Shown: one piece after another, positions 1,820 through 30,374 of the stretch | Layout: each line of letters begins with the position of its first letter | Position numbering within the stretch: position 1 is the first letter of the stretch | Source of the DNA: an uncultured Holophaga sp. | GTDB lineage: Bacteria > Acidobacteriota > Holophagae > Holophagales > Holophagaceae | Length of the DNA: 64,000 bases | Direction: 5' to 3' | Assembly (NCBI GenBank): GCA_963664825.1 | Contig: OY761614.1 | Span: 2,208,001 to 2,272,000 of the forward strand | Made by a program: the position numbers and the translations under genes | The notes under the pieces: model-generated | What the model was told of the DNA's origin: nothing | Databases searched by the model: none | Seen by the model: the letters and a program-made list of their open reading frames with translations, nothing else

Positions 1820-3004
1820 TCAGCCCGCCAGGCGCCTGCCCAGGCCCATGGCGGGCTTTTCGATCCAGCGGAAGACGAACCCCGCCAAGGCCAGGGTCAC
1901 CAGCAGGGCCGTCGGGAAGCTCCAGGCCGCAGACAGGCCCCTGGGCAGCACCTTCAGCACGATGAGCCAGGCGAAGGGGTGGAGCAGGTAGACCGAATAG
2001 CTGGCGCTGCCCAGGAACACGAAGGGCCTGCGCAGGGCATGATCGGGCATGTCATAGAAGGCGAAGATGGCCACGGCCAGCCAGCAGATGCCCACATACT
2101 TGGCCCGGGCCATGCCCGCCATGATATCGAAGTAGTCATAGAAGACGGGCCCCCTCGGGAGCGCCAGCAGGAGCAGGATCCCCAGGGCCCCGAAAAACCA
2201 AGACAGTTTCAGGCGCCAGGAGATCCGCTTGCGCAGATCGGCCACGATGCCCCCTAGCAGGAACAGGCAGGCGTGATTGGGAATCTGCACGTAGGTATGG
2301 AACTTCATTTGGCCCACGTGGGAGGCCATCTGCACCTTGCCGAAGCTCCAGGGCAGGGTCAGGGCCACGAGCAGCGCCGCTCCCAGATACAGGAACACCT
2401 TGCGGCGCGTGGCCCAGGCCAGTAGCGGGAAAACCAGGTAGAAGACGTATTCGATGCCGATGGACCATCCGCCCACCACCAGGGCGTGGTTGGGGTGGAA
2501 GATCCCAAAGGTGAGGGTGAGATTCTCCATGAGCATCCTGGGCGAGAATCCCGGCCCCACGGGGTTGAGGCCGAAGGGCGGGCGCAGGGCCAGGCCCGCT
2601 GCCACCGCCAAGTAGTAGAGTGGCGCGATGCGGAAGAAGCGCTTGATGTGGAAGCGCCGCAGTTCCCGCCCTCCCCAGGCGCTCTCCCCGTAGAGATGGA
2701 AGAAACAGAAGCCGCTGACGATGAAGAAGCCCTCCACCCCGTAGTTCCCGAAGATGGCCAGGGCATTGTTCGCCCGGGTTCCCGCCGCTGAGAGCTCGGA
2801 CCACATGGACAGGTGGTAGACGGCCACCGAGAGCGCCATCAGGCCCCGGAGGATATCCAGTGAATCGATGCGGGAGGCCCCGGCGCGAGGCAGCGTGGAT
2901 GACCCATTCGGGCACTCCCGGGCAGTTCGTCCTCCGGACGAGCCTGGTTTGCGCTGCTCTTCGCCGCCTCCTGTGTCGGCGGCTTCCGGGAGATGCACCT
3001 TCAT
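1820..3004 (-). CDS. Acyltransferase family 3 (OafA-like) membrane protein; start uncertain
   Basis: IDSLDILRG, GVEGFFIVSGF, KRFFRIAPLY, WSIGIEYVFY, SYSVYLLH. Confidence 0.88.
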   Translation of the reverse strand: MKVHLPEAADTGGGEEQRKPGSSGGRTARECPNGSSTLPRAGASRIDSLDILRGLMALSVAVYHLSMWSELSAAGTRANNALAIFGNYGVEGFFIVSGFCFFHLYGESAWGGRELRRFHIKRFFRIAPLYYLAVAAGLALRPPFGLNPVGPGFSPRMLMENLTLTFGIFHPNHALVVGGWSIGIEYVFYLVFPLLAWATRRKVFLYLGAALLVALTLPWSFGKVQMASHVGQMKFHTYVQIPNHACLFLLGGIVADLRKRISWRLKLSWFFGALGILLLLALPRGPVFYDYFDIMAGMARAKYVGICWLAVAIFAFYDMPDHALRRPFVFLGSASYSVYLLHPFAWLIVLKVLPRGLSAAWSFPTALLVTLALAGFVFRWIEKPAMGLGRRLAG

Positions 3005-3005
3005 C

Positions 3006-4043
3006 TCAGCGATAGCGCACCTCGCCTGTGCCCGGCACCAGGGCCCCGATCACCCAGGCGGTTTCCCCCGCGTTCTTCAGCGACAGGACGACTTCATCCG
3101 CATCGGCCTGCTGGACGATCACCACCATGCCCACGCCCAGATTGAAGCTGCGGCGGGCGTCCTCGAGGGGCAGCTGGGCCTTCTCCATGAGGAAGCTGAA
3201 GAGGGGCGGGATCTGCCAGCTTCCGGTTTCGATGGCGGCATCCAGATGCTTGGGAAGCACCCGAGGCAGGTTATCGGTGAGCCCGCCGCCGGTGATATGG
3301 GCCATGGCCACCAGCTTCTTGGCCTTCACCAGGGGCATGAGCTGGGTGAGGTAGCAGCGATGGGTGGCCAGCAGGGCCTCGGCCACGGTCTGCTGCGTGC
3401 CGGGCAGGGTGTCGGTTGTCGCGAGTCCCGCCACCTCGAAGCAGACCCTGCGGGCCAGGGAATATCCGTTGGTGTGGAGGCCCGCACTGGGCAGGGCGAT
3501 GATCACGTCGCCTTCGGCCATGGCCTCCAGGCGCGGCAGCAACTCGTCCTGGTCCACCACGCCCACGATGGTGCCGGCCACATCCACTTCGCCCTTCTCG
3601 TAGACCCCGGGCATTTCCGCCAGCTCGCCGCCGATGAGCGCGCAGCCCGTATTCCGACAGGCATGGGCCATGCCCGCGACGATGGCTTCGATGACCTCAG
3701 GCTCCAGGCGCTGGGCGGCGATGTAGTCCAGGAAGAAGAGGGGGCGGGCCCCCTGCACCAGGATATCGTTGATGCAGTGGTTCACCAGATCGCCGCCCAC
3801 GGTATTCCAGGTGTTGGCCAGGCGGGCCACCTTCATCTTGGTGCCCACCCCATCCATAGAGGAGACGAGGATGGGGTTCTTTTCCGGGAACTGGGCGCTG
3901 AAGAGCCCGCCGAAGAGGCCGATGTCGGAGCGCACCCCGGGGGTCTTGGTGGTCTTCACCAGGGGCTTGATCCGTCGCAGCGCCTCGTCCTGGCGGTCGA
4001 TGTCCACACCGCTGGTTGCGTACGTCACCTGTTTCTCACTCAT
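3006..4043 (-). CDS. purM: Phosphoribosylformylglycinamidine cyclo-ligase (AIR synthetase)
   Basis: YATSGVDI, DGVGTK, PLFFLDY, GGELAEMPG, HTNGYSL, HITGGG. Confidence 0.97.
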   Translation of the reverse strand: MSEKQVTYATSGVDIDRQDEALRRIKPLVKTTKTPGVRSDIGLFGGLFSAQFPEKNPILVSSMDGVGTKMKVARLANTWNTVGGDLVNHCINDILVQGARPLFFLDYIAAQRLEPEVIEAIVAGMAHACRNTGCALIGGELAEMPGVYEKGEVDVAGTIVGVVDQDELLPRLEAMAEGDVIIALPSAGLHTNGYSLARRVCFEVAGLATTDTLPGTQQTVAEALLATHRCYLTQLMPLVKAKKLVAMAHITGGGLTDNLPRVLPKHLDAAIETGSWQIPPLFSFLMEKAQLPLEDARRSFNLGVGMVVIVQQADADEVVLSLKNAGETAWVIGALVPGTGEVRYR

Positions 4044-4134
4044 GGCGCCCCCTGGCTCCCATGATCCCACAGGCGGTCCTAGGATCGGGTCACGAGGGGA
4101 GAAAGATGGCACTCTTAGGCATGCGGAGGACGCC

Positions 4135-4677
4135 ATGAGCATCGACGAGGCGAGGGCGGCCCAGGCCGTGCATGAATTGCTGGCCAGTTTCGGGGCCGAT
4201 CCGGAGTCGCCGGAATTGAGGGAGACGCCCCATCGGGTCGCGCAATATTGGGTCGAACGCCTCCAGGGCTATGGCCTGGATGTGGCCGCGGAACTGCAAG
4301 CCCTTCCCGGGGAGCTGGCCCCCTGTCCCGTGATTCTCGAACACGTGCCCTTCACGAGCACCTGCGAACACCACCTGGCCCCCTTCTCGGGTCAGGCCAC
4401 CATCGGCTACCTGCCCGGGGCCGGGGGCACCGTGGGCCTCTCCAAGCTGGTGCGCCTGGTGCAGGCCTTCGCCAATCGCCTCCAGGTCCAGGAGCGCATG
4501 ACCCGTCAGATATTCGAAGCTCTGGAGATCCATCTGCGCCCCCAGGCCTGGGGCATCAAGCTGGTGGCCGAGCACACCTGCATGAGCCATCGGGGCGTGA
4601 AGACGCCCGGCGTGCCCGTCACCACGATGCTTCTCGGAGGGCTCTGGAAGGACAAGGCACCGGAGGAATTCAGGTAA
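4135..4677 (+). CDS. folE: GTP cyclohydrolase I
   Basis: ETPHRVA, CEHHLAPF, GLSKL, RLQVQER, HTCM..RG. Confidence 0.93.
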   Translation: MSIDEARAAQAVHELLASFGADPESPELRETPHRVAQYWVERLQGYGLDVAAELQALPGELAPCPVILEHVPFTSTCEHHLAPFSGQATIGYLPGAGGTVGLSKLVRLVQAFANRLQVQERMTRQIFEALEIHLRPQAWGIKLVAEHTCMSHRGVKTPGVPVTTMLLGGLWKDKAPEEFR

Positions 4678-4713
4678 AGAGAACCCTCCCTTGCACCGGA
4701 GGAAAGACTGGGC

Positions 4714-4752
4714 TTGACAAGGCTACAAATGTAGACAAACTACATGTGTAGT
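4714..4752 (+). promoter_or_regulatory. TTGACA -35 followed by two tandem BlaI/MecI/CopY boxes (TACA-N2-TGTA)
   Basis: TTGACA 4714-4719; cTACAaaTGTAg 4723-4734; acTACAtgTGTAgt 4739-4752; directly upstream of BlaI gene. Confidence 0.8.
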
Positions 4753-4764
4753 CAAGGAGCCCCC

Positions 4765-5154
4765 ATGACCCAGTCCCCCCGAATTTCCGATGCCGAATGG
4801 ACGGTGATGAAGGAACTGTGGAGGCGTAGCCCCCAGACGGCCCAGGAGGTCACGGCGGCACTCCATGTGCAGACCTCCTGGAGCCCCAGCACGGTCAAGA
4901 CGCTGATCAATCGATTGGTGGGGAAGGGGGCACTGGGCTCCACGAAACAGGGGCGCGAATTTCTGTACTCGCCGAAGGTCTCCGAATCCAGTTGCGCCCG
5001 CGCCGAGAGCCACTCATTCCTCCAGCGGGTCTTCGGGGGCTCCATGCGTCCCATGCTGGCCTCCTTCCTGGAGGAGGAATCCCTCAGTCCCGAGGATATC
5101 CAGGAACTGAGGCGCCTACTGGATCACAAGGAAGCGGAGGATCGCCATGTCTGA
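4765..5154 (+). CDS. BlaI/MecI/CopY family repressor
   Basis: ISDAEWTVMKELW, WSPSTVKTLINRLVGKG, C-terminal LSPEDIQELRRLL. Confidence 0.93.
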   Translation: MTQSPRISDAEWTVMKELWRRSPQTAQEVTAALHVQTSWSPSTVKTLINRLVGKGALGSTKQGREFLYSPKVSESSCARAESHSFLQRVFGGSMRPMLASFLEEESLSPEDIQELRRLLDHKEAEDRHV

Positions 5155-6913
5155 GGCTCTCTCGCGCCTGACGGACGTGGTGCTGCGTGCTTCGCTGGAC
5201 GCCAGCCTCCTGTGTCTGCTGATCCTGGGCCTCAAGATGCTCCTGGGCCGTCGTTGGCCGGCCCGCTGGCATGCCGCCGTATGGCTCGCCCTGATCCTCA
5301 GGCTATGTCTTCCGGCGCCCGTGTTCTCCTGGCACGTCCCTATCACTCTCCCTGTCATCCAGGCTCCGGCTCCATCTTCCCATTCGGGGAAACCGATCGA
5401 AACATCCACATATAGTGCGGGTAGACGGAGTTCGCCCGTCCCGGGGCGCCTTCCACGCTCCACCATCCTTCCCTTCCTGTGGCTGGCGGGTGCCCTGACC
5501 ACAGCAGCCTTCCTCGCTTCGGGAGTCCTTCGTTTCTGGTTGGCCGTGCGAAAGGGGCGGGTCGTGACTTCCGAGCCGATTCTCCGTCTGCTGGAATCCA
5601 CCAAGGTGGAAATGGGTCTCCGAGTCCTGGTGGGGCTCGTGGAAACAGATCGGGTGAGGGCACCGGCCCTCTTCGGTTTTCTGCGCCCGCGGCTCCTGTT
5701 GCCGAAGGGCTTCCTGGAAGCCTTTGATGCAGAGGAACTGTATTACATCTTTCGCCACGAGCTTGCCCACCTCAAGCGCCTGGACATCCTGACGGGCTGG
5801 CTGGTCTGCCTGCTCCAGGCGCTCCATTGGTTCAATCCTCTGATCTGGTATGCCTTCCTGCAATGGCGCAGGGACCGGGAGTTGGCCTGCGACGAAACCG
5901 CAGTTTGGCATCTCGATGCCCCCGCTACCGCCCGCTATGGGCACACCCTGCTCCAGCTGTTCGAGCGATTCAAGGGCCCTGAGCCGCTTCCGAATCTCGC
6001 TGGAGTCCTCGAAACCCCTTCCAATCTCTCAAGGAGGATCCTCATGATCTCTCGTCTTGCCCAGGGCTGCGAACGGCGCTGGCCTCTCGCCTCCCTGCTC
6101 GTGCTGGGCGGTCTCACCGTGGTTTCCATGAGCGGCTTCGCTCATGCTTCGGATCGCTCTGTCGCTGTTCCTGCGGCCGCCGTCGCCCCGGCCCCTGAGC
6201 CCTGGCACGGTTTCGTCAACGATGCCGATCTGCTGGGCGGATGGCGCACCGCGGATTTCGTCAAACGGGTCGAGGATTTCCAGCCCGACCAGCGCCAGTG
6301 GAAGGACCCCGACTACCTCCAGGAAATGTTCTTCCATGCCGATGGCACAGGCAGGGAGGTCTGCGTCAATGGGAACTCAAACAAATGGAAGTGGACTCTA
6401 GGGAAGATCTACGCCGGATCTCCCACCGAGGGGCGGTACGAGATCCGTCAAATGGCTGGACGCACCTTCCTCTTCTTCGCATGGATGAACGGCGATGTGC
6501 TGTCCCGCGGCCACAAACCCTATTGGGTCGTGCTGGAGAAGGCGCCCCGCCTGCGGGAAGTGGCCAGCCGTGTCCAGGACCGGATCGACTACCCCTTCGA
6601 TAACGACCCCGCGTGCCTTGGCAACTGGTCCAGCGTCGATTTCGTGGCGCGGATCGAAGACTTCAAACCCGCCGAGCGGCATACCAAAGAAGAGGCCATG
6701 CCTTTCAAGGGCCTCGAGTTCCTGCCCCAGGGCAAAACGACCGGCTCCTACCGCTGGACCCGGGGCCTGCTGCTGCACGACGGGGATCACACTGCCTCCC
6801 GGTATGAGATCCGCGACATGGATGGGGCCCGCTACCTCTTCTTGGAATGGAAGAGCGGCGACTACACCCATCGTGGAATGAGGCCCAGCTATTACGTGCT
6901 AAAGGCCCAGTAG
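5147..6913 (+). CDS. BlaR1-like M56 metallopeptidase with duplicated C-terminal domain
   Basis: HELAH, LHWFNPLIW, ELACDE; overlaps BlaI stop. Confidence 0.9.
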   Translation: MSEALSRLTDVVLRASLDASLLCLLILGLKMLLGRRWPARWHAAVWLALILRLCLPAPVFSWHVPITLPVIQAPAPSSHSGKPIETSTYSAGRRSSPVPGRLPRSTILPFLWLAGALTTAAFLASGVLRFWLAVRKGRVVTSEPILRLLESTKVEMGLRVLVGLVETDRVRAPALFGFLRPRLLLPKGFLEAFDAEELYYIFRHELAHLKRLDILTGWLVCLLQALHWFNPLIWYAFLQWRRDRELACDETAVWHLDAPATARYGHTLLQLFERFKGPEPLPNLAGVLETPSNLSRRILMISRLAQGCERRWPLASLLVLGGLTVVSMSGFAHASDRSVAVPAAAVAPAPEPWHGFVNDADLLGGWRTADFVKRVEDFQPDQRQWKDPDYLQEMFFHADGTGREVCVNGNSNKWKWTLGKIYAGSPTEGRYEIRQMAGRTFLFFAWMNGDVLSRGHKPYWVVLEKAPRLREVASRVQDRIDYPFDNDPACLGNWSSVDFVARIEDFKPAERHTKEEAMPFKGLEFLPQGKTTGSYRWTRGLLLHDGDHTASRYEIRDMDGARYLFLEWKSGDYTHRGMRPSYYVLKAQ

Positions 6914-7017
6914 TCGCGCACTCGCGGACGCGCCCTCGGACGATTCAAGAATGGTTGCCGCACACGAATCGTGGCAGCCTGCCGAGGGCGCGTCCGCTTG
7001 AGGGTAAACTCGAGACC

Positions 7018-7776
7018 ATGCCCGTGCATCCTTCGATCCTCTCTGCTCCCCGGTCCGCCGATCTCCGGAAGCCCCTCCTGGTCCTCGATATCGATGGCGT
7101 GATGGTGGAGGCGGAGCGCAGTTTCATGGAGGCCGTGGCCCGAGCTCTTCGGGAACTGGCGCCAGGCCTCCCCTGGAGCGACGAGCACTTCCGCGCCTTC
7201 AAGCGGGTGGGGGGCTTCAATAACGATTTCCGTCTGACGGCTGGCGGGTTGGCGCTGCACGAGGCTGGCCAGATCGAACGCCTCTGGTCGGCGGCGGGTG
7301 TGGGATTCCCCGATCTGGAAAACCGCATCCAGGCTCTGGAGCCCCTCTGCCAGCGGGCGGTGCAGGCCCACTACGCCGAGACGCGAAAACTGGAATCGGC
7401 ACTGATCACACTGGGCGAACTGGAGGCCACGGGGCTGGGACTGGCCATCTACACGGGCCGTCCCCCGGAGGAACTGGCCATGGCCCTCGAGGTGCTGGGC
7501 TTCGAGCTTCCCCATGTCTGCGATTGCGCCCCGGAACTCCGCAAGCCCAGGCCCGACGGCCTCCTCCTCCTGGTGGAGCGCTTCCAGGCCAAGGCCGTCA
7601 TCTTTGCAGGGGACACCCGGGACGATGCCGCCGCCCTGCGCTCCGCCCGGGAACTGCGCCCGGAGATCGCCTGGACCTTCGCCGCCATCGGCCCGGAGCG
7701 GGAGCGGATCGCCCTGCCGGGAGATCTCCGGGCGGAAACACTCCGGGGACTCCTCTCCGAACTCGCGATTCTCTGA
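7018..7776 (+). CDS. HAD-superfamily hydrolase (TIGR01548-like)
   Basis: DIDGV motif I, GGFNND, TGRP, KPRPDGL, GDTRDD. Confidence 0.8.
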   Translation: MPVHPSILSAPRSADLRKPLLVLDIDGVMVEAERSFMEAVARALRELAPGLPWSDEHFRAFKRVGGFNNDFRLTAGGLALHEAGQIERLWSAAGVGFPDLENRIQALEPLCQRAVQAHYAETRKLESALITLGELEATGLGLAIYTGRPPEELAMALEVLGFELPHVCDCAPELRKPRPDGLLLLVERFQAKAVIFAGDTRDDAAALRSARELRPEIAWTFAAIGPERERIALPGDLRAETLRGLLSELAIL

Positions 7777-7777
7777 T

Positions 7778-9040
7778 TCAGCGGAGCCGCGCTCGGGCCG
7801 AGGCGGCATGGGCCTTGAGGCCTTCGGCTTCGGCCAAGGCGATGGCCTGGAGCGCCAGGGAGCGCTGTCCCTCGGAGAGGATGCGCTGCCGGGTGAGGGT
7901 CTTGAGGAAGGTGCCCACGCAAACGCCGCCGGTGAAGCGGGCCGCGCCCCCGGTGGGGAGGATGTGGTTGGTGCCGCTGCCATAGTCCCCGAAGACTTCC
8001 GCCGTGGCTGCCCCCACGAAGAGGCTGCCATAGGTGCGCAGGCGGTCCTGGAGTCCCTCGGCCCGGGGCCCCTGCAGCTCCAGGTGCTCCGGCGCCAGGG
8101 CCTCTGCCAGGGCCAGGGCCTCGTCCGGGTCCCTGACGAGCACCGCGAAACCGTTCGCCAGGCTCTCCCGGGCGGGAGTGTCTGGGGGAAGCTCTGCCAG
8201 TTGGCGTCGCAGTTCCGCGTCCACCTGGTCCAGGAGCTCCTCGTCGAAACTGAGCAGCATGGGCAGGGCCTCGGGGTCGTGCTCGGCTTGGCCCAGCAGA
8301 TCCGCCGCGATCCACTGGGGTCGTGCGCCCCGGTCGGCGATGACCAGGAGTTCGCTGGGACCGGCCGGGAACTCGATGCCCACGTCCCCGTAGAGCAGGC
8401 GCTTGGCGCCGGTCACGTAGCGATTGCCGGGGCCCACGATGATGTCCACCCGGGGCAGGCCAGCCAGCCCCCAGGCCGCCGCAGCGATGCCCTGGACGCC
8501 TCCCAGGTCGAAGACCCGGTCGGCCCCGGCCAACACCGCTGCCGCCAGGGTGACGGGATGGATGCGGGGGCTCAGGACGATCACTTCCTCTACGCCGGCC
8601 ACCCGGGCGGGCACCACGCCCATGATCACGGAGCTGGGCAGGGGGTAGCGCCCGCCCGGCGCGTAGCAGGCGGCCCGCCTCACCGGCACGATGCGCTGGC
8701 CCAGGCAGACGCCGTCCTGGACCACGTCGAGATCCCGGAAGCTGGTCTTCTGGACTTCGCTGAAGGCCTTCACCCTCCCGATGGCCGCCTCGAGATGGGC
8801 TCGAAGAAGCGGATCCAGGGCCTCCACGGCCGCCTCCATGCGGGCCCTTGGCACCTCGAAGGCTTGCCCCTCAAAGCCATCCAGCTGGCGGGCCCAGGCC
8901 AGGACCGCCTCGGCACCTCGGAGGCGGATGTCCTCCAGGATGGTGGACACCTCCGGCGGAATGGGGGGCAGGGGACGTTGGGCCCGGGCCAGGACTTCTC
9001 GGGGAGAGAGGCGCTGGAGAAGGGTTGGTGGATTCGACAT
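7778..9040 (-). CDS. hisD: Histidinol dehydrogenase
   Basis: YAPGG, GPGNRYV, AGPSE, QAEHD, APEHL, GDYGSGTNHILPT. Confidence 0.96.
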   Translation of the reverse strand: MSNPPTLLQRLSPREVLARAQRPLPPIPPEVSTILEDIRLRGAEAVLAWARQLDGFEGQAFEVPRARMEAAVEALDPLLRAHLEAAIGRVKAFSEVQKTSFRDLDVVQDGVCLGQRIVPVRRAACYAPGGRYPLPSSVIMGVVPARVAGVEEVIVLSPRIHPVTLAAAVLAGADRVFDLGGVQGIAAAAWGLAGLPRVDIIVGPGNRYVTGAKRLLYGDVGIEFPAGPSELLVIADRGARPQWIAADLLGQAEHDPEALPMLLSFDEELLDQVDAELRRQLAELPPDTPARESLANGFAVLVRDPDEALALAEALAPEHLELQGPRAEGLQDRLRTYGSLFVGAATAEVFGDYGSGTNHILPTGGAARFTGGVCVGTFLKTLTRQRILSEGQRSLALQAIALAEAEGLKAHAASARARLR

Positions 9041-9051
9041 GAGGTGTCCTT

Positions 9052-10323
9052 TCATGGTTTCAGGGCCTGAGGCTTAGCGTCTCCGGGCTTGCGGGTATCG
9101 GTGGTGTGGCGGCGCTCCAGCTCCCGCAGCACCTGTTCCAGGCGGATGCCGCCCTTGGCCAGGCGGACCATGAGGAAGTAGAGGAGATCGGCGGCCTCCC
9201 AGACCCCTTCGTCCGGAGTCTCGGCCCCGATCAGTTCCTCGGTTTCCTCCCGGAGCTTGGCCTCCAGCAGCCCTTCCTCCCGGAAGAGCCGGGCCGCGTA
9301 GCTGCCCTCCGGGGCCGATTCCAGCCGTTGGCGGAGGGTGGCCTCCAGGTCCGGGAGGGCGAAATCGGCCGAGCCGAAGCAGGTGGCGGCTCCCGTGTGG
9401 CAGGCGGGGCCGGTCTGCCTCACCAGGAAGCGCAGGGTGTCCCGGTCGCAGTCCGCCTCGACCCGCAGCAGCTCCTGGCGATTCCCGCTGCCCTTCCCCT
9501 TCTCCCAGAGCTCTCCCCGGGAGCGGGACCAGTAGATGCCCTTGGCCTCCACCAGGGCCCGGCGCAGGCTCTGGCGGCTCTGCCAGGCCACCATGCGCAA
9601 CCGTCCAGACTCGTCCTGGACCGCCGCGGGGATGAGGCCTCCCTGCTTGTCCCAGTCCAGGCAGGCCAGGAAGGCCTCCGCGGGATCCAGCAGGCCCTTG
9701 TAGAGGGCCATGCCCACCTGGGCGTCCAGCCCCATCCGGTCCAGGGCGGCCACGTCCTCGGCGCTGCCCACGCCCCCGGCATAGGTGACCGGGAGCTTCG
9801 TGGCGTCCCGAACCTGGCGGGCGGCCTCCCAGTCCACGCCCTCCAGGCGGCCTTCCCGGTCCACCACGGTCATGAGGAAGCCACCGCAGCAGGGCGTCAG
9901 GCGGCGGGCCCGGTCCATGGGAGCCTCCGCTTCATCGGCGCGCCAACCCCTGGACTGGAGGCGGCCCTGGTGCTGGTCCACGGCGACAAGGGCCCGTTCC
10001 CGGGGCAGCTTGCGCAGGAAGTCCTCGCTGGCGGCCGTGCCGATGATCACGCGGGCCGCCCCGGCCCTCAGCAGTTCGTGGGCCTTTTCCACGGTGCGCA
10101 CGCCCCCGCCCACCCGGCAGCGGGCAATGGCGCAGAGCTCCTTCACCAGTGCGAGGTTGTCCCCCTGGCCGAGGGCGGCGTCCAGATCGATGACGGCCAG
10201 TTCGCCGTAGACGCGCCAGCCCTCGGCGAGGCCCAGCACATCGTCCACTTCCAGGATCCTGGTGCGGCCCCCCACCAGCTGGACGGCCTTGCCCCCCATG
10301 AGATCGATGCTCGGAATCAGCAC
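9052..10323 (-). CDS. hisA-hisIE: Fused HisA + HisI + HisE (GTG start overlapping hisF stop)
   Basis: LIPSIDLMGGKAVQL, VGGGVR (HisA); WSRSR..LWEKG, DCDRDT, ACHTG..CF (HisI); EAADLLY (HisE). Confidence 0.92.
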   Translation of the reverse strand: MLIPSIDLMGGKAVQLVGGRTRILEVDDVLGLAEGWRVYGELAVIDLDAALGQGDNLALVKELCAIARCRVGGGVRTVEKAHELLRAGAARVIIGTAASEDFLRKLPRERALVAVDQHQGRLQSRGWRADEAEAPMDRARRLTPCCGGFLMTVVDREGRLEGVDWEAARQVRDATKLPVTYAGGVGSAEDVAALDRMGLDAQVGMALYKGLLDPAEAFLACLDWDKQGGLIPAAVQDESGRLRMVAWQSRQSLRRALVEAKGIYWSRSRGELWEKGKGSGNRQELLRVEADCDRDTLRFLVRQTGPACHTGAATCFGSADFALPDLEATLRQRLESAPEGSYAARLFREEGLLEAKLREETEELIGAETPDEGVWEAADLLYFLMVRLAKGGIRLEQVLRELERRHTTDTRKPGDAKPQALKP

Positions 10324-11860: not shown

Positions 11861-12426
11861 CGCAGCACGCCCTTGGTGGAGCGCAGTCCCTGGGCAGGGG
11901 AGAGGGCCTCGCCGAGGGCCATGCCGAGAGCCTTGAAGGCCGCTTCGGCCATGTGGTGGGCGTTCTGGCCCTTCACGCTGAGATGCAGGGTGAAGCGGGC
12001 CTCCATGGCCAGGCTCCGGAAGAAGTGGAGGATGTTCTCCGTGGCCAGGCCCCCCAGCATCGGGATGGGGAAGGGGATTTCCAGCACGGCCCAAGGCCTG
12101 CCTCCCACATCCAGGGCGCAGGTGGCCAGGGCCTCGTCCATGGGCAGCATCCGCTGGCCGTAGCGGAGAATCCCGGCGCGATCCCCCAGGGCTTCGTCCA
12201 GGGCCCGGCCCAGGGCGATGGCCACGTCCTCGGTCAGGTGGTGGCCATCCCCCAGGGGCGTGAGATCCTCGGCCTCCAAGGCTAGGCCGATGCCTGAATG
12301 GAAGCTGAGCTGTTCCAGGAAGTGGTTCAGCATGGGCTGGGAAGTGCCGATGAGGCCGGTATCGGCGCCCAGGCTGAGGAGAATCCGCGTTTCCCGCGTA
12401 TTGCGTTCCAGGGTGATGGGTTTCAT
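11857..12426 (-). CDS. hisB: Imidazoleglycerol-phosphate dehydratase (monofunctional)
   Basis: RNTRET, HHLTEDVAIALG, PMDEAL, NAHHMAEAAFKA, STKG. Confidence 0.96.
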   Translation of the reverse strand: MKPITLERNTRETRILLSLGADTGLIGTSQPMLNHFLEQLSFHSGIGLALEAEDLTPLGDGHHLTEDVAIALGRALDEALGDRAGILRYGQRMLPMDEALATCALDVGGRPWAVLEIPFPIPMLGGLATENILHFFRSLAMEARFTLHLSVKGQNAHHMAEAAFKALGMALGEALSPAQGLRSTKGVLR

Positions 12427-22851: not shown

Positions 22852-23517
22852 GTGCATCATCACGGTAATTCCAGGTTCCGCGGTTCACCGGGCCTCTCGC
22901 TCGAGCATAGCGGGCGTAGCCTTCAGGCGAGGCACTGGACCTTGTTGCTGGTGCTTAATCTCTTTGGAACCCTGGTGGCCCAGGATCCGAAGATTCCGGC
23001 CCGCATTCTGGCTTTCGAGGGTATCCCTCGGTCGGTCAAGGTGGGAGAGTCCGTGGAACTGCGCTGGGTTGCCAGAGGAACAGATAAGGTGCGTCTGGAT
23101 CCCTCCGGCGAAGAACTCCCTGCTCAGGGACGAATGACGCGGGTTCTCGGGAAAAGCACCCTGTTCTGGCTCCATGCCATCAACGCCAAGGGCGGAGAGA
23201 GTGTGCCCCTGGTGATCGAGGTCCGCCCCTCCCGCGTGGCCTCTCAGAGGCCTCTTGAGGCTTCAAATGGAAATTGGATCCAGTTCGCCGCCCTGGCTGA
23301 TGAATCCAGGGCCCAGCAGCTGGGAAAGACGTTGGAGCAGCTCTCGGGGCATCCGGTCAGTCTTTCCACTGTGGAGGCACCTAAACGCCCGGGCCAAAGG
23401 CTCCATAGGATCCGCATGGGTCCCTTTGCCACAAGGGACGAGGCACGGCGCCGCCTGAAGGATATCGCATCCAGAATCCTGCCTCTCCGCTTGAAGCCCT
23501 GGCTGGCGGAGGATTGA
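22852..23517 (+). CDS. SPOR-domain protein; start uncertain
   Basis: C-terminal WIQFAAL...HRIRMGPFATRDEA; N-terminal hydrophobic segment. Confidence 0.7.
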   Translation: MHHHGNSRFRGSPGLSLEHSGRSLQARHWTLLLVLNLFGTLVAQDPKIPARILAFEGIPRSVKVGESVELRWVARGTDKVRLDPSGEELPAQGRMTRVLGKSTLFWLHAINAKGGESVPLVIEVRPSRVASQRPLEASNGNWIQFAALADESRAQQLGKTLEQLSGHPVSLSTVEAPKRPGQRLHRIRMGPFATRDEARRRLKDIASRILPLRLKPWLAED

Positions 23518-23733
23518 TCGCAACATTCGAGGGGAAGTCGGCATCTTTGTCGGGAAATGGAAATTGCAAAGCCTCGACCCCGGCTCATGATCAGCATGTT
23601 TCCATTGGGGGAACCCTGCCCAGGTCTCTTTTGTCATAGTTGTGTGCATGGTTCTTTAGTTAAACGTGATCAATGGAACTTTGCTGTTGCTTTCCCAAAT
23701 ATAGGATAGAATGACTCCTCACAAGGAGCCCAC

Positions 23734-24261
23734 ATGAATACCCTCAAATACGAAGCTGGTACGGGAAAAGGGAATCGCGCCGTGTTCGTTTGCGGTAAGG
23801 CCACCGTTCCCGCCGCCATGATCTCTCGCCTTCTCAAGGAAATCGAAGGGAAGCCTGAGGCCACCCAGGCCCGTATCCTTATTTCCAAAATTGCTCCCCG
23901 CCATGGCGCCTTTCTGGAGGCCATGGAGAAGGCAGAGATCAGCTACCAAGTGGCCATCCAGACGATGATCGAGCTTGCTCCTGTCAAAACGAAGGGTACG
24001 CCCCGCATTACGAAGGAAGCCTCTGCTGTAGCGAAACTGCTCTGCCGGAAATACAGCAACAAGACCGCCGACGAGATGTTTGCTTCCTTCATCGAGACGG
24101 TGTTCCGCCCCGAGTTCAAGACCCTCGTGCTCGAATTGACGGGTGAAAATGAGAAGAAATTCGGCCGGAATACTCAAGGACGGATCCGTGTGCGTCCCGA
24201 GCGCAAGGATCTGGCTGGCAATGCCGCCAAGGCGCGGGCGGGGCGAAAGAAGAAGGCGTAG
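23734..24261 (+). CDS. Hypothetical basic protein
   Basis: 175 aa; AAGGAG RBS; no recognised motif. Confidence 0.7.
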   Translation: MNTLKYEAGTGKGNRAVFVCGKATVPAAMISRLLKEIEGKPEATQARILISKIAPRHGAFLEAMEKAEISYQVAIQTMIELAPVKTKGTPRITKEASAVAKLLCRKYSNKTADEMFASFIETVFRPEFKTLVLELTGENEKKFGRNTQGRIRVRPERKDLAGNAAKARAGRKKKA

Positions 24262-24305
24262 TTCGTCGGGAATAGATGACAGGCCTGAACGCAGGTTTGG
24301 ATGAA

Positions 24306-24357
24306 ACAAGGGAACCAGGATTGAGGCACCCGCGGGGGCCCATTCTGGTTCCCTTGT
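24306..24357. repeat. 13-bp perfect inverted repeat
   Basis: ACAAGGGAACCAG ... CTGGTTCCCTTGT. Confidence 0.75.
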
Positions 24358-24487
24358 GTTAGGTAGGATCTTCGGTTGGGGCGGGTGGTCTTTCATTCCT
24401 CCATGCCACCAATTTGTAATGGGATTTCCCATTTCCACGGCGAATCGGGTGCACAGTGGAACTGCACACAAACCCTGGAGAACCGCC

Positions 24488-24961
24488 ATGACCCTGAAGC
24501 CTGCCCACCGGAACATGGAGGAAGGCCCCATCACTCGCGGGAAGGGCCTCGATACTCTGGATCGTTTCATCATTCAGAATTGGGCGCCACCGACCCGTTT
24601 TGGCCTTTGGCGCGACCAGTTTGGGGCCCTGGCCGGTCCCAAAGCGTCCCTGGAACACTTCTTCAACGATGCCCTGAAGGTCGGGTGGATGCGCGATGGC
24701 GGCGGGGCGGTGATCACCATCGACCCACCTCAGGATCCATTTGTGACGATTCGGGTGGAGAGCGAGAGCAAGGTCTGGACACCGGAATCCACGTACAACC
24801 CCAAACGTTGGCTTTGGAAGGTGGTGCCCCTGGTGACGGCCCTGGTGAACTTGGAAGCGGCGCGGAGGATGCCCCTGCCGGAAGGGGAGGAGAGCTATCT
24901 GAGAGGCCTGAGGGAAGGCCGATTGAAGGAGGCCTGGGAGGCCTACACCCCGGCTCCTTGA
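24488..24961 (+). CDS. Hypothetical protein
   Basis: 157 aa; GGAG RBS before ATG 24488. Confidence 0.6.
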   Translation: MTLKPAHRNMEEGPITRGKGLDTLDRFIIQNWAPPTRFGLWRDQFGALAGPKASLEHFFNDALKVGWMRDGGGAVITIDPPQDPFVTIRVESESKVWTPESTYNPKRWLWKVVPLVTALVNLEAARRMPLPEGEESYLRGLREGRLKEAWEAYTPAP

Positions 24962-25401
24962 TGGGGTCCAAACCCTGATACGACATCCTCGTCCGCCCTG
25001 TCATTCGCCAATTGCTCGTGCAGGCCGGTGCGGGCGCTCTTGGCCTTCTTCCACCGGGGGATCAGCTTCAAGGCGGCGTTCTCCTCGGCAGCTTTTCGGA
25101 TCACCTCCACCAGCGTCCAGCCCGCATCCCATGCCAGTTTCACGAAGCCCGGTTGGAGTTCATCCTTGAGGATCTCCTCCGCATTGGGGTATTTCAGGAC
25201 GCGGTTCGCCGCCTTGGTGGCCATGATCCGGGCCAGACGATTCTCTTTGATGTCCTCGCTGCCCTCGAAGAGGTAGTAGCTGATCTCCACCTTCTTGCCG
25301 GGCTTGGTCACCAGGAGCAGAGGGGTCCGCTTCTCGGGTACCGGATCGGTGGCCTTGGGGGTGGTGTCTTTCTTGGGCGCGATGGGTTGTGTGCTGGCCA
25401 T
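24943..25401 (-). CDS. Hypothetical protein
   Basis: 152 aa; GGAGG RBS; high-GC3 coding pattern. Confidence 0.65.
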   Translation of the reverse strand: MASTQPIAPKKDTTPKATDPVPEKRTPLLLVTKPGKKVEISYYLFEGSEDIKENRLARIMATKAANRVLKYPNAEEILKDELQPGFVKLAWDAGWTLVEVIRKAAEENAALKLIPRWKKAKSARTGLHEQLANDRADEDVVSGFGPHQGAGV

Positions 25402-25672
25402 GATGAGATCCTCCAGGGTGCCCAGGGCTGGTTGTCCTGGGAGATGGGCAGCCTTGCTTGCCCTCAACCTGAATATTCCAGTCACCATGGCCTTCTGGCA
25501 CGCCATCACCTGCGCCTTGCCGCATCAAATCTAGCTTTCAGAGCCTATCGGGGTGTCGACCAATCGGGTAATAGCCTCCCAACCTCGGCGGGCATTACGG
25601 GCATATAGAATGATTTGGGGCAGTATTTTTATGAAAAATTGGCCGGTGTCCAGATGGGGTTGGGCCGCCTGC

Positions 25673-25846
25673 ACCTAACCGCCCTAATATCAACGCTGCC
25701 CGTAGTCTACGAAGACTCCGGGCAGGGCCTGATCCCTGGAAATTGGTCTATCCGAAGCGGCGCGATGAGGGGAGTGTAGGAATCAGAGCGATTGGTGGTG
25801 GTTGTAAGCGCAAGAGGTAGCGTCAGGGCTGAACGATTGGTTAGGC
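25673..25846 (-). repeat. attC-like site A (chimeric or degenerate)
   Basis: Bounded by ACCTAAC and GTTAGGC; 25752-25846 closely similar to site B, remainder unrelated. Confidence 0.65.
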
Positions 25847-25941
25847 CGTGATTGAGCTTGAGGCTCATGCGGGCCAACCTTGGTTTGGAGACGGATTGGG
25901 ACGAGCGCGATTGTTGGAACCACAACGCCGAAAATGATGAT

Positions 25942-26481
25942 TCATTTTTTTAAGCCAAAGATCTCGCAAACCCACGAGAGTCTGCTTGCTTGAACTCCAA
26001 GAACAAAAGCAGAGACTAAGAAAATAAAATACGCGAGCCAATAATGAAAGGGCACATTGTCCAAGAGCCAGCGAGGAGTTAACTTTTCTGGAGGTGGAAG
26101 CCTAAATTCTGCTTGAGAAGACTCTGGGAGGATGGCCGTAATATTTGATTCGTTAATTTCGTCTGCTCTAGCCAATGTCAGACCACTTTCAAAATCTTCC
26201 CTTGCTGTTAAAAAGACAGCTTTTATTTTTTTTAAAAAATCAAGTTTGGTAGACATAATTACCGGTTTTTCTGCTTCGACGAGAGCCTTAAAGTAAGAGG
26301 AATCATCGCCAAATGCATTTGATATTAGACTACGCACCTTTGCGCGCCAATTTAAGAATTGCTCTTCATCCACTTCTTCATAGGTTCCAACATATTCGGA
26401 ATGTATCGTCCTTCGAGTGGCCTCCAGAGTGGCCAACTGTTCAACAAGTTCCACAAACCGCTTTTCGATTGCCTGGCTCAT
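25942..26481 (-). CDS. Cassette gene: helical N-terminal domain with C-terminal membrane segment
   Basis: AT-rich 179-aa ORF between attC-like sites; PEKLTPRWL..VP..W followed by a hydrophobic helix. Confidence 0.75.
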   Translation of the reverse strand: MSQAIEKRFVELVEQLATLEATRRTIHSEYVGTYEEVDEEQFLNWRAKVRSLISNAFGDDSSYFKALVEAEKPVIMSTKLDFLKKIKAVFLTAREDFESGLTLARADEINESNITAILPESSQAEFRLPPPEKLTPRWLLDNVPFHYWLAYFIFLVSAFVLGVQASRLSWVCEIFGLKK

Positions 26482-26533
26482 TTGGTTCTACTCCGAGTTG
26501 ATGCCTAGTAATGAATTGGCGGAGTTGGGTGTG

Positions 26534-26650
26534 GCCTAACGAGTGAGTTAACCGGCGCTACCGAGGCGGCGCGTTGAGTGGAGATGAGGAATCGGAGTGA
26601 CTGGTGGTGGTTGTAAGTACAAGAGGTAGCGTCCGGGTTGAGCGTTAGGT
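26534..26650 (-). repeat. attC site B (117 bp)
   Basis: GCCTAAC...GTTAGGT; imperfect dyad AACCGGCGCTACC / GGTAGCGTCCGGGTT. Confidence 0.85.
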
Positions 26651-26651
26651 T

Positions 26652-27692
26652 TCACTTGCGACCCCATACACTTACAGACTTGGCATCATAGATTCTTACT
26701 TTACATTTAAATTTGTTTTGAATATTTTCGATATGTCGTTTATTTTCATCTGAATATACACCAATGTAAATGCTATTTAGCTTTGGAAATTCCTTTCGTC
26801 CGAATTTTGCAGCTCGATTGATTGCTTCGATAATGTGTTCGTCGGAAGACCCAAAATTAAATCCGAACGTAACTAATGACCCTGTGATTTTAGACATAGA
26901 ATCATAGCAAAAGGAAAGATAGTGATTGTGCATTATATGAGACAATTTTTCTTTCCCGTCACCTGCGGTCACGAAAATTGGATATTCACCTTTATCCATT
27001 CGTTTTCCAACTTTTTCAAGAAGAAAATTGTGCTGATCATATTCTTCTTTAACGATGTATGCACCTGTATCAAAGAATGGCAGAGCGCCATGTACGTAAA
27101 ATACGTTTTGTTCATCTCTATTTTTTCCCCAGCGTAATTCTGACCAAATAAACTCCTCAGGAGGGTCGTCCGGGTTCTCGAGATCTCTTCCGAATCCATC
27201 CACATGATTTATGACCGCATTTCGCATTAGAACCCAATAGAGAAGTAAATCATAATTGGTGGAAAAAATTAAACCTTCTGTGTCAAGAAATATCTTAAGA
27301 AATTCTGAGCATGCCCTGCTCTCTGATTCAGGTATTGTAAACACGTGTTCTGGATGAAGAGATTTTACCGCATCAAGTAGGCTTGTTTTTAGCTTTTTGC
27401 TAGCTCCATCAATTTTAGCTTTTAGATTTGGATCACCACCAAATGTTTCAATTAGTGACGAAAAATTATCCAATTGTTGCATTATGACTTCGAAATTTTT
27501 TGTCTCGATCACCTTGAGAATTTTGGAAAGATCTTCATTATCGAGTTTTTGAATGAATTCGTGCAACGCATTATAAGAAAAAATCTCCTTATCATAAGAC
27601 ATGCTAAAACCATTGCCGAGTAGCAGGTGAAACTCTCTGTCTCGGTTTTTTGCAATCGATTTTAAAACGTCGTCAAAGGATTCGAGTTCCAT
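26652..27692 (-). CDS. Cassette gene: DUF4917 (SIR2-like fold) protein
   Basis: LLLGNGFS, TNYDLLLYW, DGF, HGAL, PIFV, FG.NF..D.HI; AT-rich. Confidence 0.82.
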   Translation of the reverse strand: MELESFDDVLKSIAKNRDREFHLLLGNGFSMSYDKEIFSYNALHEFIQKLDNEDLSKILKVIETKNFEVIMQQLDNFSSLIETFGGDPNLKAKIDGASKKLKTSLLDAVKSLHPEHVFTIPESESRACSEFLKIFLDTEGLIFSTNYDLLLYWVLMRNAVINHVDGFGRDLENPDDPPEEFIWSELRWGKNRDEQNVFYVHGALPFFDTGAYIVKEEYDQHNFLLEKVGKRMDKGEYPIFVTAGDGKEKLSHIMHNHYLSFCYDSMSKITGSLVTFGFNFGSSDEHIIEAINRAAKFGRKEFPKLNSIYIGVYSDENKRHIENIQNKFKCKVRIYDAKSVSVWGRK

Positions 27693-27733
27693 CGGAAACC
27701 TCCATGTGAAAACTCTGAACAGACGAGGGTGAA

Positions 27734-27857
27734 ACCTAACGATCGAAGCTAACCGGCGCTGCCGAAAGCGGCGCGGAGCGAGAGTGACGGGAAATCCGGA
27801 CGATGATGAGGACGGTGCCTCGCGGAGGCAGCGTCCAGGTTGAGCGCAAGGTTAGGA
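27734..27857 (-). repeat. attC site C (124 bp, canonical)
   Basis: Minus strand TCCTAAC-cttgc-GCTCAACC...GGTTAGC..GTTAGGT; upstream gene's TAA lies in the R'' box. Confidence 0.9.
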
Positions 27858-28469
27858 GCTCCCAGGGGATGGAAGTTCGTTGTCTTCAAGAAGGACAAGC
27901 ATGTTGTAGGCCTTGTTTGCGCATGATTGTATTTCTGGGGATGGTTCACAGACGGCATACAAGGACTGGAATTTGCCTCCAACTCGGTTGATAAATTCTA
28001 GGATTTTATTTTTTCTATTATTAATACTTATATGGACGAGATACATTGCGACACTTAATGGAAAAAATAGATACGAAGATATTATAACCCATGCGCAATA
28101 GTTTGAGCCACAACTCCGGTCAACATAGACACCATTTAAGGCGTAATGTTCAGCAGCATGCCATTGACAAAATTTGTTATTAAAAAACCTAGAATATGCT
28201 GCTTGAATAAAGGCTATAAGTGTCAATATAATACGAAAAAAGAATGCAGTGCGGAAACCAACGATTGGAATAGAACTATATGTTAATAAGTCGTATGAAA
28301 TTGCTATAAGCATAGGAGTGTATTCTTTTTTAAGGTGTTGATTCATTTCTCCGCTAAGTTTTAGTCTTTTAGGGATTGGTTTACCTTCAATGGTAACCGT
28401 CACTGCCCAATTTGGGCCATAAAATGTTGTTCCATGCTTTGTTGAACGACCGTCGATTCTATATTCCAT
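27852..28469 (-). CDS. Cassette gene: DUF1385-like membrane protein
   Basis: WHAAEH and SCGSN resemble DUF1385 HGAEH/RCGTS; hydrophobic segments; AT-rich. Confidence 0.6.
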   Translation of the reverse strand: MEYRIDGRSTKHGTTFYGPNWAVTVTIEGKPIPKRLKLSGEMNQHLKKEYTPMLIAISYDLLTYSSIPIVGFRTAFFFRIILTLIAFIQAAYSRFFNNKFCQWHAAEHYALNGVYVDRSCGSNYCAWVIISSYLFFPLSVAMYLVHISINNRKNKILEFINRVGGKFQSLYAVCEPSPEIQSCANKAYNMLVLLEDNELPSPGSS

Positions 28470-28482
28470 GGATGCTCACAGC

Positions 28483-28546
28483 GCCTAACGATGGAGCTAA
28501 CCCGCGCTGCCGAGGCGGCGCGGCGAGTTGGGTGAAACGAGGATTC
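28483..28546 (-). repeat. attC half-site D (truncated)
   Basis: GCCTAACGATGGAGCTAACCCGCGCTGCCGAGGCGGCGCG matches one arm of B/C; other arm absent. Confidence 0.75.
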
Positions 28547-28806
28547 ATCCCGAGTCTGACACTATGCTGGTTTCATTCCAAGGGGAACAATTCCCTACGG
28601 TGAACCTCCTGATGCTCCATCCCGATGTGGGTGAGCCAATAGCCTCGGCTCCATCACACGAAACTGTGAATCGTCCTTCTCTCACCCATTTGACGCAGAT
28701 CCCGAGCTTTTGAAATCCCCCCGTGCCGGTCCCCCCGTGTCCCTGGGAAAAGGGGGGGGGACCGGTGCAGGGCTGGATCCTGGTTATTTCCCGGGAGGAG
28801 GCCGCA

Positions 28807-29892
28807 ATGGCAAGGGAAAAAGGAAATACGGGGCTGCGAGGTGGACTCCGGCTCCGCAACGGAATCTATAACTTCCGATTCAAGTTCAAAGGTGAGGTGA
28901 TATCCGGGTCCACGGCTTGCCGGGATCGGAAGTCAGCAGAGCGATGGCTACTCCAGTTCCGGTCAAAACTCGCCCTGGAGAACATCAACCTCAAGGAAAC
29001 CAAGATCCCGACCTTCGGGGATTGCTATCACCTCTGGACCAAGGGAAGGGCTCCAAGGCTGGCCGAGACTTCCTTGAAGATGTATCGATGTCATTGGCGG
29101 CGAGTCTGGAGTCCATGGAAGGACATCAAGCTGACGGAGCTTCAGCCTCACATTGATACCCTATACACCACCTATAAGATTGGACATGCCGACGCCAGCC
29201 AACGAGAGATGTTTAGTAAATTGAAAAGCATCCTGAATTTCGCCAAGGAAAGGTGCATCCACAACCTGCCCTTTGATTTCCCCTTGGTAAAGGTCAGTCA
29301 TGCCCCAAAGGTCGTGTTGGTTGGTGATGAGATCACGACCCTCTTTGATCACCTCAATAAGATCGCCAATCTCCAGCAACAAGTTTTGATAAGAAGCATG
29401 TTCCATCTGGGCTTGAGGGTAAGTGAGGCCTATAACCTCCGATGGTCCGGTTACGACGAAGCTCGCCGAACCTACACCTTCATCGGCAAGGGAGGGAAAG
29501 AGGCCACCCTGCCGGTCATCGATGAGATGGCCGAATGGTTTGCCAAGCTTCCAAGGGTTTCAGACCTCATGTGCCCACGGTCCGATAGATCAGATCTACC
29601 CCGTGCGACCAAGTATACGGATGAGGTCTTGAAGCAAGCCGCCGCCATGATGGGTTTGATTGGCTTCAGCCATCATCGGCTCCGGGCTTCACTTGCCACC
29701 CACCTCCTCAATAAGGGGGTTCCTCCGACCCAAGTGCAGGCCATCCTTCGGCACGAATCAATCCAAACCACGGTGGCCCATTACTACCAACAAGATCTCA
29801 AGACCCTCCGAGCGGCCATGGAAGCGCACCACATCAGCACCCGCCCCACGGACCCCGATACCCTCCCGAAGATCATCCCCTTCGCCTGCTAG
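28807..29892 (+). CDS. Tyrosine recombinase, phage-integrase type
   Basis: GLRVSEA (R), GKGGK (K), HRLR, LRH, HYY; N-terminal arm-binding-like segment; GGAGGAGG RBS. Confidence 0.92.
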   Translation: MAREKGNTGLRGGLRLRNGIYNFRFKFKGEVISGSTACRDRKSAERWLLQFRSKLALENINLKETKIPTFGDCYHLWTKGRAPRLAETSLKMYRCHWRRVWSPWKDIKLTELQPHIDTLYTTYKIGHADASQREMFSKLKSILNFAKERCIHNLPFDFPLVKVSHAPKVVLVGDEITTLFDHLNKIANLQQQVLIRSMFHLGLRVSEAYNLRWSGYDEARRTYTFIGKGGKEATLPVIDEMAEWFAKLPRVSDLMCPRSDRSDLPRATKYTDEVLKQAAAMMGLIGFSHHRLRASLATHLLNKGVPPTQVQAILRHESIQTTVAHYYQQDLKTLRAAMEAHHISTRPTDPDTLPKIIPFAC

Positions 29893-29971
29893 ACCCGCCA
29901 ATGCCCCAGAGCCCCCGGCCAATGGGGGCTCTTCTTCTAGAGCGGGATCCCCTGGTTCTACTTCAGTTCCC

Positions 29972-30014
29972 GGTTGTCCCCTGTGGTTGTCCCCCGCCGC
30001 TGGGTGGTTGTCCC
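29972..30014. repeat. Three direct copies of GGTTGTCCC
   Basis: At 29972, 29985 and 30006, downstream of the integrase. Confidence 0.75.
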
Positions 30015-30152
30015 GATATGCTGCCACCCCAATCCCTCCCGATTTGGTTCAGAAAGGGATTCTCCCGAATTTATGTTCGTCTTTTTTCTAAAATTCGTTT
30101 TTTGTGCTTGCGCAAATCGGATAAAAAGCGAAACTAGGTTCGAGGTGATCCC

Positions 30153-30374
30153 ATGAATCTCGAGCGTACCCCCCGGAATGGTGAGCTAAAGTCCTTTGGA
30201 TACAAGCAGATGGGCTACTTCATGGAGTATGGGCCCATCTATGCGCGGGATCTGGATGAAGCTCGAGCCCTCATCCGGCAGCGCCTCAATGCCCGGCGCC
30301 TGCCCTGGGGTCTCCAGATCTGGGATCTGGCTAAACGCCCCCTGGCCAAGTGGCGCGTGGCTGAGGCCTCCTGA
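30153..30374 (+). CDS. Small hypothetical protein
   Basis: 73 aa; GAGGTGA RBS. Confidence 0.65.
   Translation: MNLERTPRNGELKSFGYKQMGYFMEYGPIYARDLDEARALIRQRLNARRLPWGLQIWDLAKRPLAKWRVAEAS

Follow-up and report, generated by a model that had tools for sequence, protein, structure and literature searches.

A cassette block of the resident integron type, probably carried by the remnant of an integrative element with a non-IntI integrase, in an uncultured Holophaga

The stretch of DNA studied here, hereafter the window, comprises 64,000 nt of the genome of an uncultured Holophaga sp. (contig OY761614.1, 3.47 Mb long, positions 2,208,001–2,272,000) and contains a gene for a tyrosine recombinase next to an array of gene cassettes of the integron type. 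This genome (G000) was compared with 132 other genomes of the family Holophagaceae (133 family genomes in total). Four related sites separate or flank three AT-rich minus-strand genes between 25752 and 28545. The recombinase gene is divergent to them, with a distance of 318 bp between the first cassette core and the integrase start codon. A preliminary description of the locus, made from the sequence alone, had put this distance at about 320 bp and correctly recognized three co-oriented AT-rich genes, the GC-content of the genome being 63.7%. The features of the locus are listed in Table 1.

Table 1. Features of the putative element remnant and its cassette block (positions in the window; R2, attC model described in the text)
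Feature	Position	Strand	Remarks
Element backbone gene, left end of the remnant	24943–25401	−	Broken after residue 128 (~25018)
Backbone non-coding DNA with hairpin 25696–25725, not attC	25402–25751	−	Aligns to the backbone of G071 and to G012:C1, without the cassette insertion
Truncated attC	25752–25848	−	5′ 97 nt kept, L′ and R′ boxes gone; 92.8% identity over 97 nt to resident attC, match ends at 25752
Cassette gene, 179 aa, no family	25942–26481	−	41.5% GC; no Pfam, NCBIfam or PHROG match above cut-off
attC without the 5-nt R″–L″ spacer	26532–26652	−	R2 101.9 bits, 5-column gap
Cassette gene, DUF4917/SIR2-like	26652–27692	−	36.3% GC; PF16263 137 bits
Intact attC	27732–27859	−	About 127 nt; R and L boxes and extrahelical bases present; R2 112.4 bits
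Cassette gene, 205 aa, no family	27852–28469	−	37.4% GC; stop codon within the R″ box
attC 3′ half	28483–28545	−	Occupies the attI position of an integron; 42/46 bases as in resident attC, E 2e-11 (BLAST)
Lambda-type tyrosine integrase of the element, 361 aa	28807–29892	+	PF00589 79 bits; phrog_1 E 3e-41
Arm-type repeats, three copies of a 9-mer	29972–30027	+	30008–30027 recurs beyond the core in the attP-type junction
Small conserved host gene, integration target	30153–30374	+	5′ end probably from the element; similarity to G108, G109, G110 and G111 starts at 30213–30214
Crossover core (attR), 14 bp, in the target gene	30213–30226	+	L021 and run X1 diverge from the window at 30226; core direct repeat bounds the G012 element

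The recombinase possesses all catalytic residues (R204, K228, H290, R293, H316 and Y326, invariant across 13 aligned sequences), as had been stated from the sequence. The insertion specific to IntI is indeed missing, leaving a 32-column gap against two IntI proteins, and the score on the IntI profile TIGR02249 is 45.9 bits with a cut-off of 265, profile positions 172–243 being skipped. A phylogenetic tree of 26 rows, all from loci and proteins gathered in this analysis, places the recombinase in a clade apart from IntI with a support of 100/99; an integrase phylogeny had been proposed in the preliminary description. Judged by its sequence, the recombinase is not an IntI. The structure model features three strands and a helix at residues 14–58, with a predicted local distance difference test score of 75–84 over residues 11–50; this we take to be the build of the lambda-type arm-binding domain. 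No Pfam match to an arm-binding domain was found in the recombinase, and full-length lambda Int aligns with it over 352 columns. The N-terminus is thus predicted to have a lambda-type arm-binding fold, in agreement with the phage-like N-terminus described earlier. The clade is narrow, with 16 proteins in the search and representatives in 3 of the 132 other family genomes. A G+C-rich inverted repeat with 18-nt arms (28719–28772) lies directly upstream of the integrase start.

The small gene downstream of the integrase was matched in 106 of the 133 family genomes, nearly always in a single copy, and encodes proteins of 62–83 aa. No Pfam match was obtained for its product, and ESM Atlas gave no function for either this protein or that of the backbone gene. 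Rfam and ARAGORN gave no match in the window; hence, there is no tRNA target. In six of the seven loci with integrases of at least 52% identity that contain it (the window, L021, L022, L023, L035 and L043) the target gene is located 0.3–4.9 kb downstream of the integrase, and 40 target-gene loci without this integrase represent empty sites.

The junctions around the core were compared in several loci. L021, the integrase of which is 94% identical to that of the window, tracks the window to 30226 and then enters new DNA repeating the 20-mer of 30008–30027. A contig of run X1, which comes from a different study from the runs containing the whole stretch, has this join as well, the 38 letters in between being nearly identical. 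Two copies of the core occur in genome G012, separated by 14.6 kb; a host-type 5′ flank adjoins the left copy, and the remainder of the target gene adjoins the right copy. L021 and G012 each contain a word of 16–18 bases twice, about 200 bp ahead of the core and 40 bp past it. Comparison of these junctions shows related elements bounded by, or recombined at, a core of 13–14 bp in the 5′ part of the small host gene, and the repeats and junctions together conform to the attP/attL/attR pattern of lambda-type integrases. G000 has only one copy of the core, so that the attL/attR direct-repeat pair, both copies of which are present in G012, is not found there.

The backbone gene on the opposite side of the cassettes occurs in only 3 of the 133 family genomes (G000, G012 and G071), in each within about 6–10 kb of the recombinase family. 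Its relatives are mostly 191–201 aa long, and the alignment stops after residue 128. The cassette block is therefore flanked by backbone on both sides: by the integrase on one, and on the other by the family-restricted gene together with backbone like that of G071. Because G000 has a single copy of the core and the backbone gene is cut after residue 128, the element in the window is considered, from its sequence, to be a remnant of about 5.2 kb (approximately 25018–30226). No relaxase, conjugation, replication or packaging genes were named among the window open reading frames (ORFs) and 30 selected ORFs of related loci, and no relatives were found in viral contigs, phage records or plasmids.

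The attribution of the entire 7.3-kb gap relative to G108–G111 to the element was rejected; no link of 22852–24961 to the element family was seen, and 23734–24261 has relatives elsewhere in G109 and G110. This rest of the gap contains a SPOR-domain gene, two unknown ORFs and an inverted repeat (24306–24357). Several related elements have features of their own. At L043:8762–9625 in G012, the 5′ part of the backbone gene is fused in frame to the catalytic half of the integrase; the deletion lies inside an element that keeps both att sites and carries a gene for a 2409-aa RHS/PKD protein. The related elements at L022:6791–8743 and L023:1993–4497 have in common a queC-like gene cluster, which may be a defence module based on DNA modification.

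The sites were evaluated with an attC model (R2) of 21 training sites, none of them from the window. Its structure includes R and L boxes and three extrahelical bases, with 92% of cells paired and 6 pairs showing compensatory change. The training set took in four full sites of L043 and the full site of L022, originally detected by a hidden Markov model from G000 integron sites only. An earlier model (R1), with the L-box helix one column off, was used for the filters-off negatives of L023, L035, L025, L079 and L044 and is behind the alignment (A5) of the attC identity table; the key attC searches were repeated with R2, with the same outcome. Both models are biased to long sites, and short unrelated attC may escape both.

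Only one of the four sites of the window (27732–27859) is intact in sequence; it shares 91.8% identity over 122 nt with resident attC. The preliminary description had taken both internal sites as intact, but 26532–26652 has lost the entire R″–L″ spacer, which is 5 nt long in all 12 integron sites of G000 and all 33 of G111 (45/45 in the same genus). Spacer counts of 0 for L159, L156 and L043 were judged to be pattern artefacts and excluded. A public contig covering 26535–30308 shows no differences and no gaps relative to the window, and the site 26532–26652 is probably not recombinogenic. The palindromic sites had been interpreted as attC, and the two full sites passed the attC model. Of the leftmost site, described as 25673–25846, only 25752–25848 is attC; the remaining stretch (25673–25751), including the hairpin and the boundary motif, aligns with backbone of the G071 and G012:C1 elements, in which the boundary motif is different. 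On R2 the segment 25725–25848 reaches 44.3 bits with its arms unpaired. The right half-site scores 10.2 bits (28481–28545, E 0.17), which is not significant alone; it was accepted because of its BLAST match to resident attC, not the model score. Free folding of the two full sites gave z values of −1.3 to −2.7 and poorly recovered the attC hairpin.

The reported complementarity of each cassette's 5′ core to its own 3′ inverse core is complete for the DUF4917 cassette (12/12) and extends to 8 and 6 contiguous bases in the other two; the same measure in the resident integron is 7–12 (11 cassettes measured). Judged from their sites, the window cassettes are genuine integron cassettes, and damage to both terminal sites, noted earlier, was confirmed: both ends of the block are broken within attC.

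G000 also harbors the true intI that the preliminary description had suggested searching for. It is located at C1:2538930, about 300 kb from the window, encodes a protein scoring 452.7 bits on TIGR02249 with no internal stop (the only match above cut-off in G000) and has 12 attC sites upstream. The three longer sites of the window show a best identity of 0.84–0.89 to this resident array, not exceeding 0.68 to genus g7 and 0.56 to g14. For the sites of L043 and L022 the relation is reversed (0.79–0.85 to g7 arrays, at most 0.65 to g1). The attC type, as judged by these identities, follows the host lineage, and the three cassettes of the window are shown by the same comparison to carry attC of the host genus's own integron type. 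IntI is present in 84 of the 132 other family genomes.

The family attI motif has three matches in G000 (at the resident integron, inside its array and at the head of an array at 324 kb) and also occurs in L043. It was not found in the window between the recombinase and the array, where the spacer alignment was matched by 18 of 200 shuffles. Two further attC loci of G000 lack intI: an orphan array opening with the attI-like motif, with no intI nearby (324–329 kb; L012:5650–10770, C1:323.6–328.8 kb), and a lone attC adjoining some 2 kb of AT-rich DNA (885 kb; L013:7147–7273). The attI-like motif within the resident cassette array lies near L011:11085 (C1:2536085). The same array contains one 292-bp cassette with no clear gene twice (L011:7105–7396 and 12129–12420) and two transposase-like ORFs at its far end. 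In the same genus, G111 has a very long array of this attC type (C1:743–827 kb, 33 sites in the first 19 kb).

Among the cassette genes, the identification of the middle one as DUF4917 was borne out by Pfam. Its protein also matches PADLOC PDC-S21, a candidate anti-phage family, with 369 bits and had no match in the 132 other family genomes at E 1e-20; the gene may represent defence cargo. The product of the 179-aa gene has a weak match to PADLOC PDC-S35 (E 4e-4), and no family was assigned to that of the 205-aa gene by Pfam, NCBIfam, PADLOC and PHROG scans. A consensus-only scan listed no sigma-70-type promoter directed towards the array in 28550–28800.

Cassette blocks are found in some of the related elements. 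L043 contains four full attC sites between the integrase and attR, and a fifth, truncated one reaching only 8.3 bits; L022 has one full and one partial site in the same interval. Both arrays are downstream of and convergent with the integrase, which is truncated in L043. L042 has one short attC and one half about 8 kb upstream of its integrase. No attC was found at L023, L035, L025 and G071. Homologues of the recombinase thus do neighbor arrays with different cassettes, as the preliminary description had proposed to check: attC was found near three of seven related loci, with unrelated blocks, compared to 0 of 20 other integrase loci (about 20 kb each) and 1 of 40 target-gene loci, the latter being a complete integron in G114. 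Fisher's test gives p 0.012, which is overstated, the loci not being independent; as the element of L043 is related to that of L022 and comes from the same genome as L042, the enrichment is a hint only. The seven-locus count omits the window itself; L021, L024, L026, L027 and L028, the contigs of which end too soon to one side or to both; L034 and L047, which duplicate matches already counted; and L029–L033 (21–32% identity). In G000, 11 of the 14 tyrosine recombinase matches are at least 53 kb from any attC, and the other three are the window integrase, IntI and a fragment beside the integron.

No cassette genes are common to the four attC-bearing elements or shared with the resident array. 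Four of the eight block ends in these elements are clearly inside attC sites, a fifth weakly so. The position of the block differs from element to element (downstream, far upstream or absent), and the divergent position of array and recombinase is not conserved. From the unshared genes and the attC type following the host lineage, block capture appears to have occurred more than once. Contig joints between attC sites, with sides of 23–35 bases, were considered as traces of excision and rejected, as they are explained by repeats in other arrays.

The integron of G114 (L104:882–1889 and 2946–9904; L126:675–4750) lies immediately upstream of the target gene and shows the array–integrase–gene geometry of the window. 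It has at least 14 attC sites, and its IntI is 68% identical to that of G000. A G114-like integron next to the target gene was considered as the source of the window cassettes and rejected, since the attC types differ (at most 0.60 identity).

The features of the locus resemble several known systems. In lambda-family integrases of prophages and islands, the general pattern is that the target gene is restored by a carried 5′ end. The window integrase has in common with them the three-domain build, a predicted arm-binding N-terminus and a core flanked by arm-type repeats, and differs in its narrow clade and in its target, a small unnamed protein gene. Sedentary chromosomal integrons have long, homogeneous attC sites, like the Vibrio cholerae repeats; the window shares with them attC of about 127 nt with R/L boxes, three extrahelical bases and covarying arms, AT-rich cassettes and one candidate defence gene, but lacks IntI, attI or a detected cassette promoter (Pc), the real integron being 300 kb away. 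Clusters of attC sites without an integron-integrase (CALINs) were defined by Cury 2016 (PMC4889954), where 50 of 18,808 non-IntI tyrosine recombinases had attC next to them (29 in genomes having IntI elsewhere) and where such recombinases are concluded not to be IntI. The window resembles a CALIN of that definition in having two or more attC, no intI nearby and intI elsewhere on the replicon, and differs in that the recombinase is linked to a defined element whose core and arms have been mapped and whose relatives carry unrelated blocks. Qi et al. 2023 (PMC9892861) described phages carrying pieces of sedentary integrons, also CALINs; here, too, a mobile element holds a segment of a sedentary integron with host-type attC, but no phage structural genes were seen in the window remnant and no intI or attI was captured. 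CALINs are treated as moved in trans or borne on mobile elements in PMC11389934 and 10.1101/2025.06.18.660453, and defence genes in cassettes are the subject of 10.1101/2024.07.02.601686, in which no mention of DUF4917 was found. The literature searched, in which coverage of subscription journals was thin, yielded no publication dealing with this element family or with integrons of Holophagaceae.

Taken together, these data indicate that the window probably contains a CALIN carried as cargo by a decayed integrative element, which has a non-IntI integrase and a core of its own. Three sites score on the family-specific model (112.4, 101.9 and 44.3 bits), no intI is present within 4–10 kb (the nearest above cut-off being about 300 kb away), and neither an adjacent IntI insertion nor attI, as in a complete integron, was found. 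In the proposed scheme, the integrase would insert and excise the element by lambda-like attP × attB recombination at the core, and insertion would restore the target gene with the element-supplied 5′ end. Recombination that was not site-specific, with breaks inside attC, would have moved the cassette block out of a longer sedentary array of this lineage and into the backbone; the integrase presumably does not act on attC. The left junction is gone in G000, so the element is probably immobile there, and, a single attC being intact, the cassettes are probably locked in despite IntI in trans. Of the two alternatives offered in the preliminary description, the capture of a cassette block by an integrative element is thus supported by the own core, the backbone on both sides and the host-type attC.

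The other alternative, an integron-like platform in which the recombinase itself moves cassettes or recombines attC, is highly improbable. The divergent layout at 318 bp, the intact catalytic residues and the attC enrichment near relatives suggested it. The genome, however, has its own IntI with a matching attC type, and the recombinase lacks the IntI insertion and has another target, a separate double-stranded core with arms. No attI motif precedes the array, though the motif is found at the resident integron and heading two other arrays; the first boundary is a broken attC and three of the four sites are damaged. The position is not conserved among relatives, with the L022 and L043 arrays downstream and convergent and the L043 integrase truncated. 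A route through the host IntI, with cassettes inserted singly into the same element at a secondary, attG-type site and the ends trimmed by later deletions, is rather unlikely. It agrees with the intact IntI of G000 and its presence in 84 of 132 other genomes, with the attC type following the host lineage and with the experimentally shown insertion at genomic attG (10.1101/2022.09.11.507474). Insertion of this sort predicts that the first cassette is not preceded by half an attC and that the last attC extends in full to the crossover G; with both ends broken inside attC, two extra deletions are needed, and the block occupies a different backbone position in each element. A chance neighborhood, in which a chromosomal rearrangement placed a CALIN at an insertion hot spot, next to an integrase unrelated to it, is improbable, although the other two attC loci of G000 without intI, the 50 of 18,808 recombinases in Cury 2016 (PMC4889954), the four of seven related loci without attC and the G114 integron at the same host gene are compatible with it. 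Against it stand the element backbone on both flanks of the block and, with the overstated p value given above, the presence of attC near three of seven related loci versus 0/20 and 1/40.

Several observations weigh against the element-borne CALIN. At L025, the seventh locus, the target gene is 6 kb upstream, on the opposite side of the integrase. At L023 and L035, DNA before the core matches g14 genomes lacking the integrase over 140–340 bp, so the core is not proven as the target there, and sister integrases (43–44% identity) are not next to the target gene. Two contigs show the attP-type junction, one of them 1.3 kb long and the other of depth 3; it could reflect a tandem join and not a free circle, and no recombination was observed in G000. 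The capture route is not separable from later erosion, and the G114 integron may mean that the target site attracts cassettes for other reasons. As a separate observation, the sister elements (L042:9673–14323 and L044:8568–13137) have two related integrases in tandem, 3.5 kb apart, away from the target gene.

The element-borne CALIN represents cassette hitch-hiking of an already described kind and no new integron type. What is new is the element family, its target site and the capture of blocks of host type on repeated occasions. This reading removes an attractive candidate for an integron without IntI; such cases can be told apart by the recombinase's own att core, the presence of attI and the conservation of position. 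As a tool, the integrase–att pair might also be of use for site-specific integration in a group that is poorly tractable. A mapped family of integrative elements in Acidobacteriota seems to take up cassette blocks more often than other islands, and, if the enrichment holds on more loci, this would be a route for cassettes of sedentary integrons to leave their genome. It is conceivable, if somewhat unlikely, that the integrase family acts as a cassette shuttle, its elements repeatedly taking blocks of host sedentary integrons by breakage in attC hairpins and moving them between Holophagaceae genera. If so, defence genes would be among the cargo, and the resident IntI could re-harvest the cassettes in the recipient.

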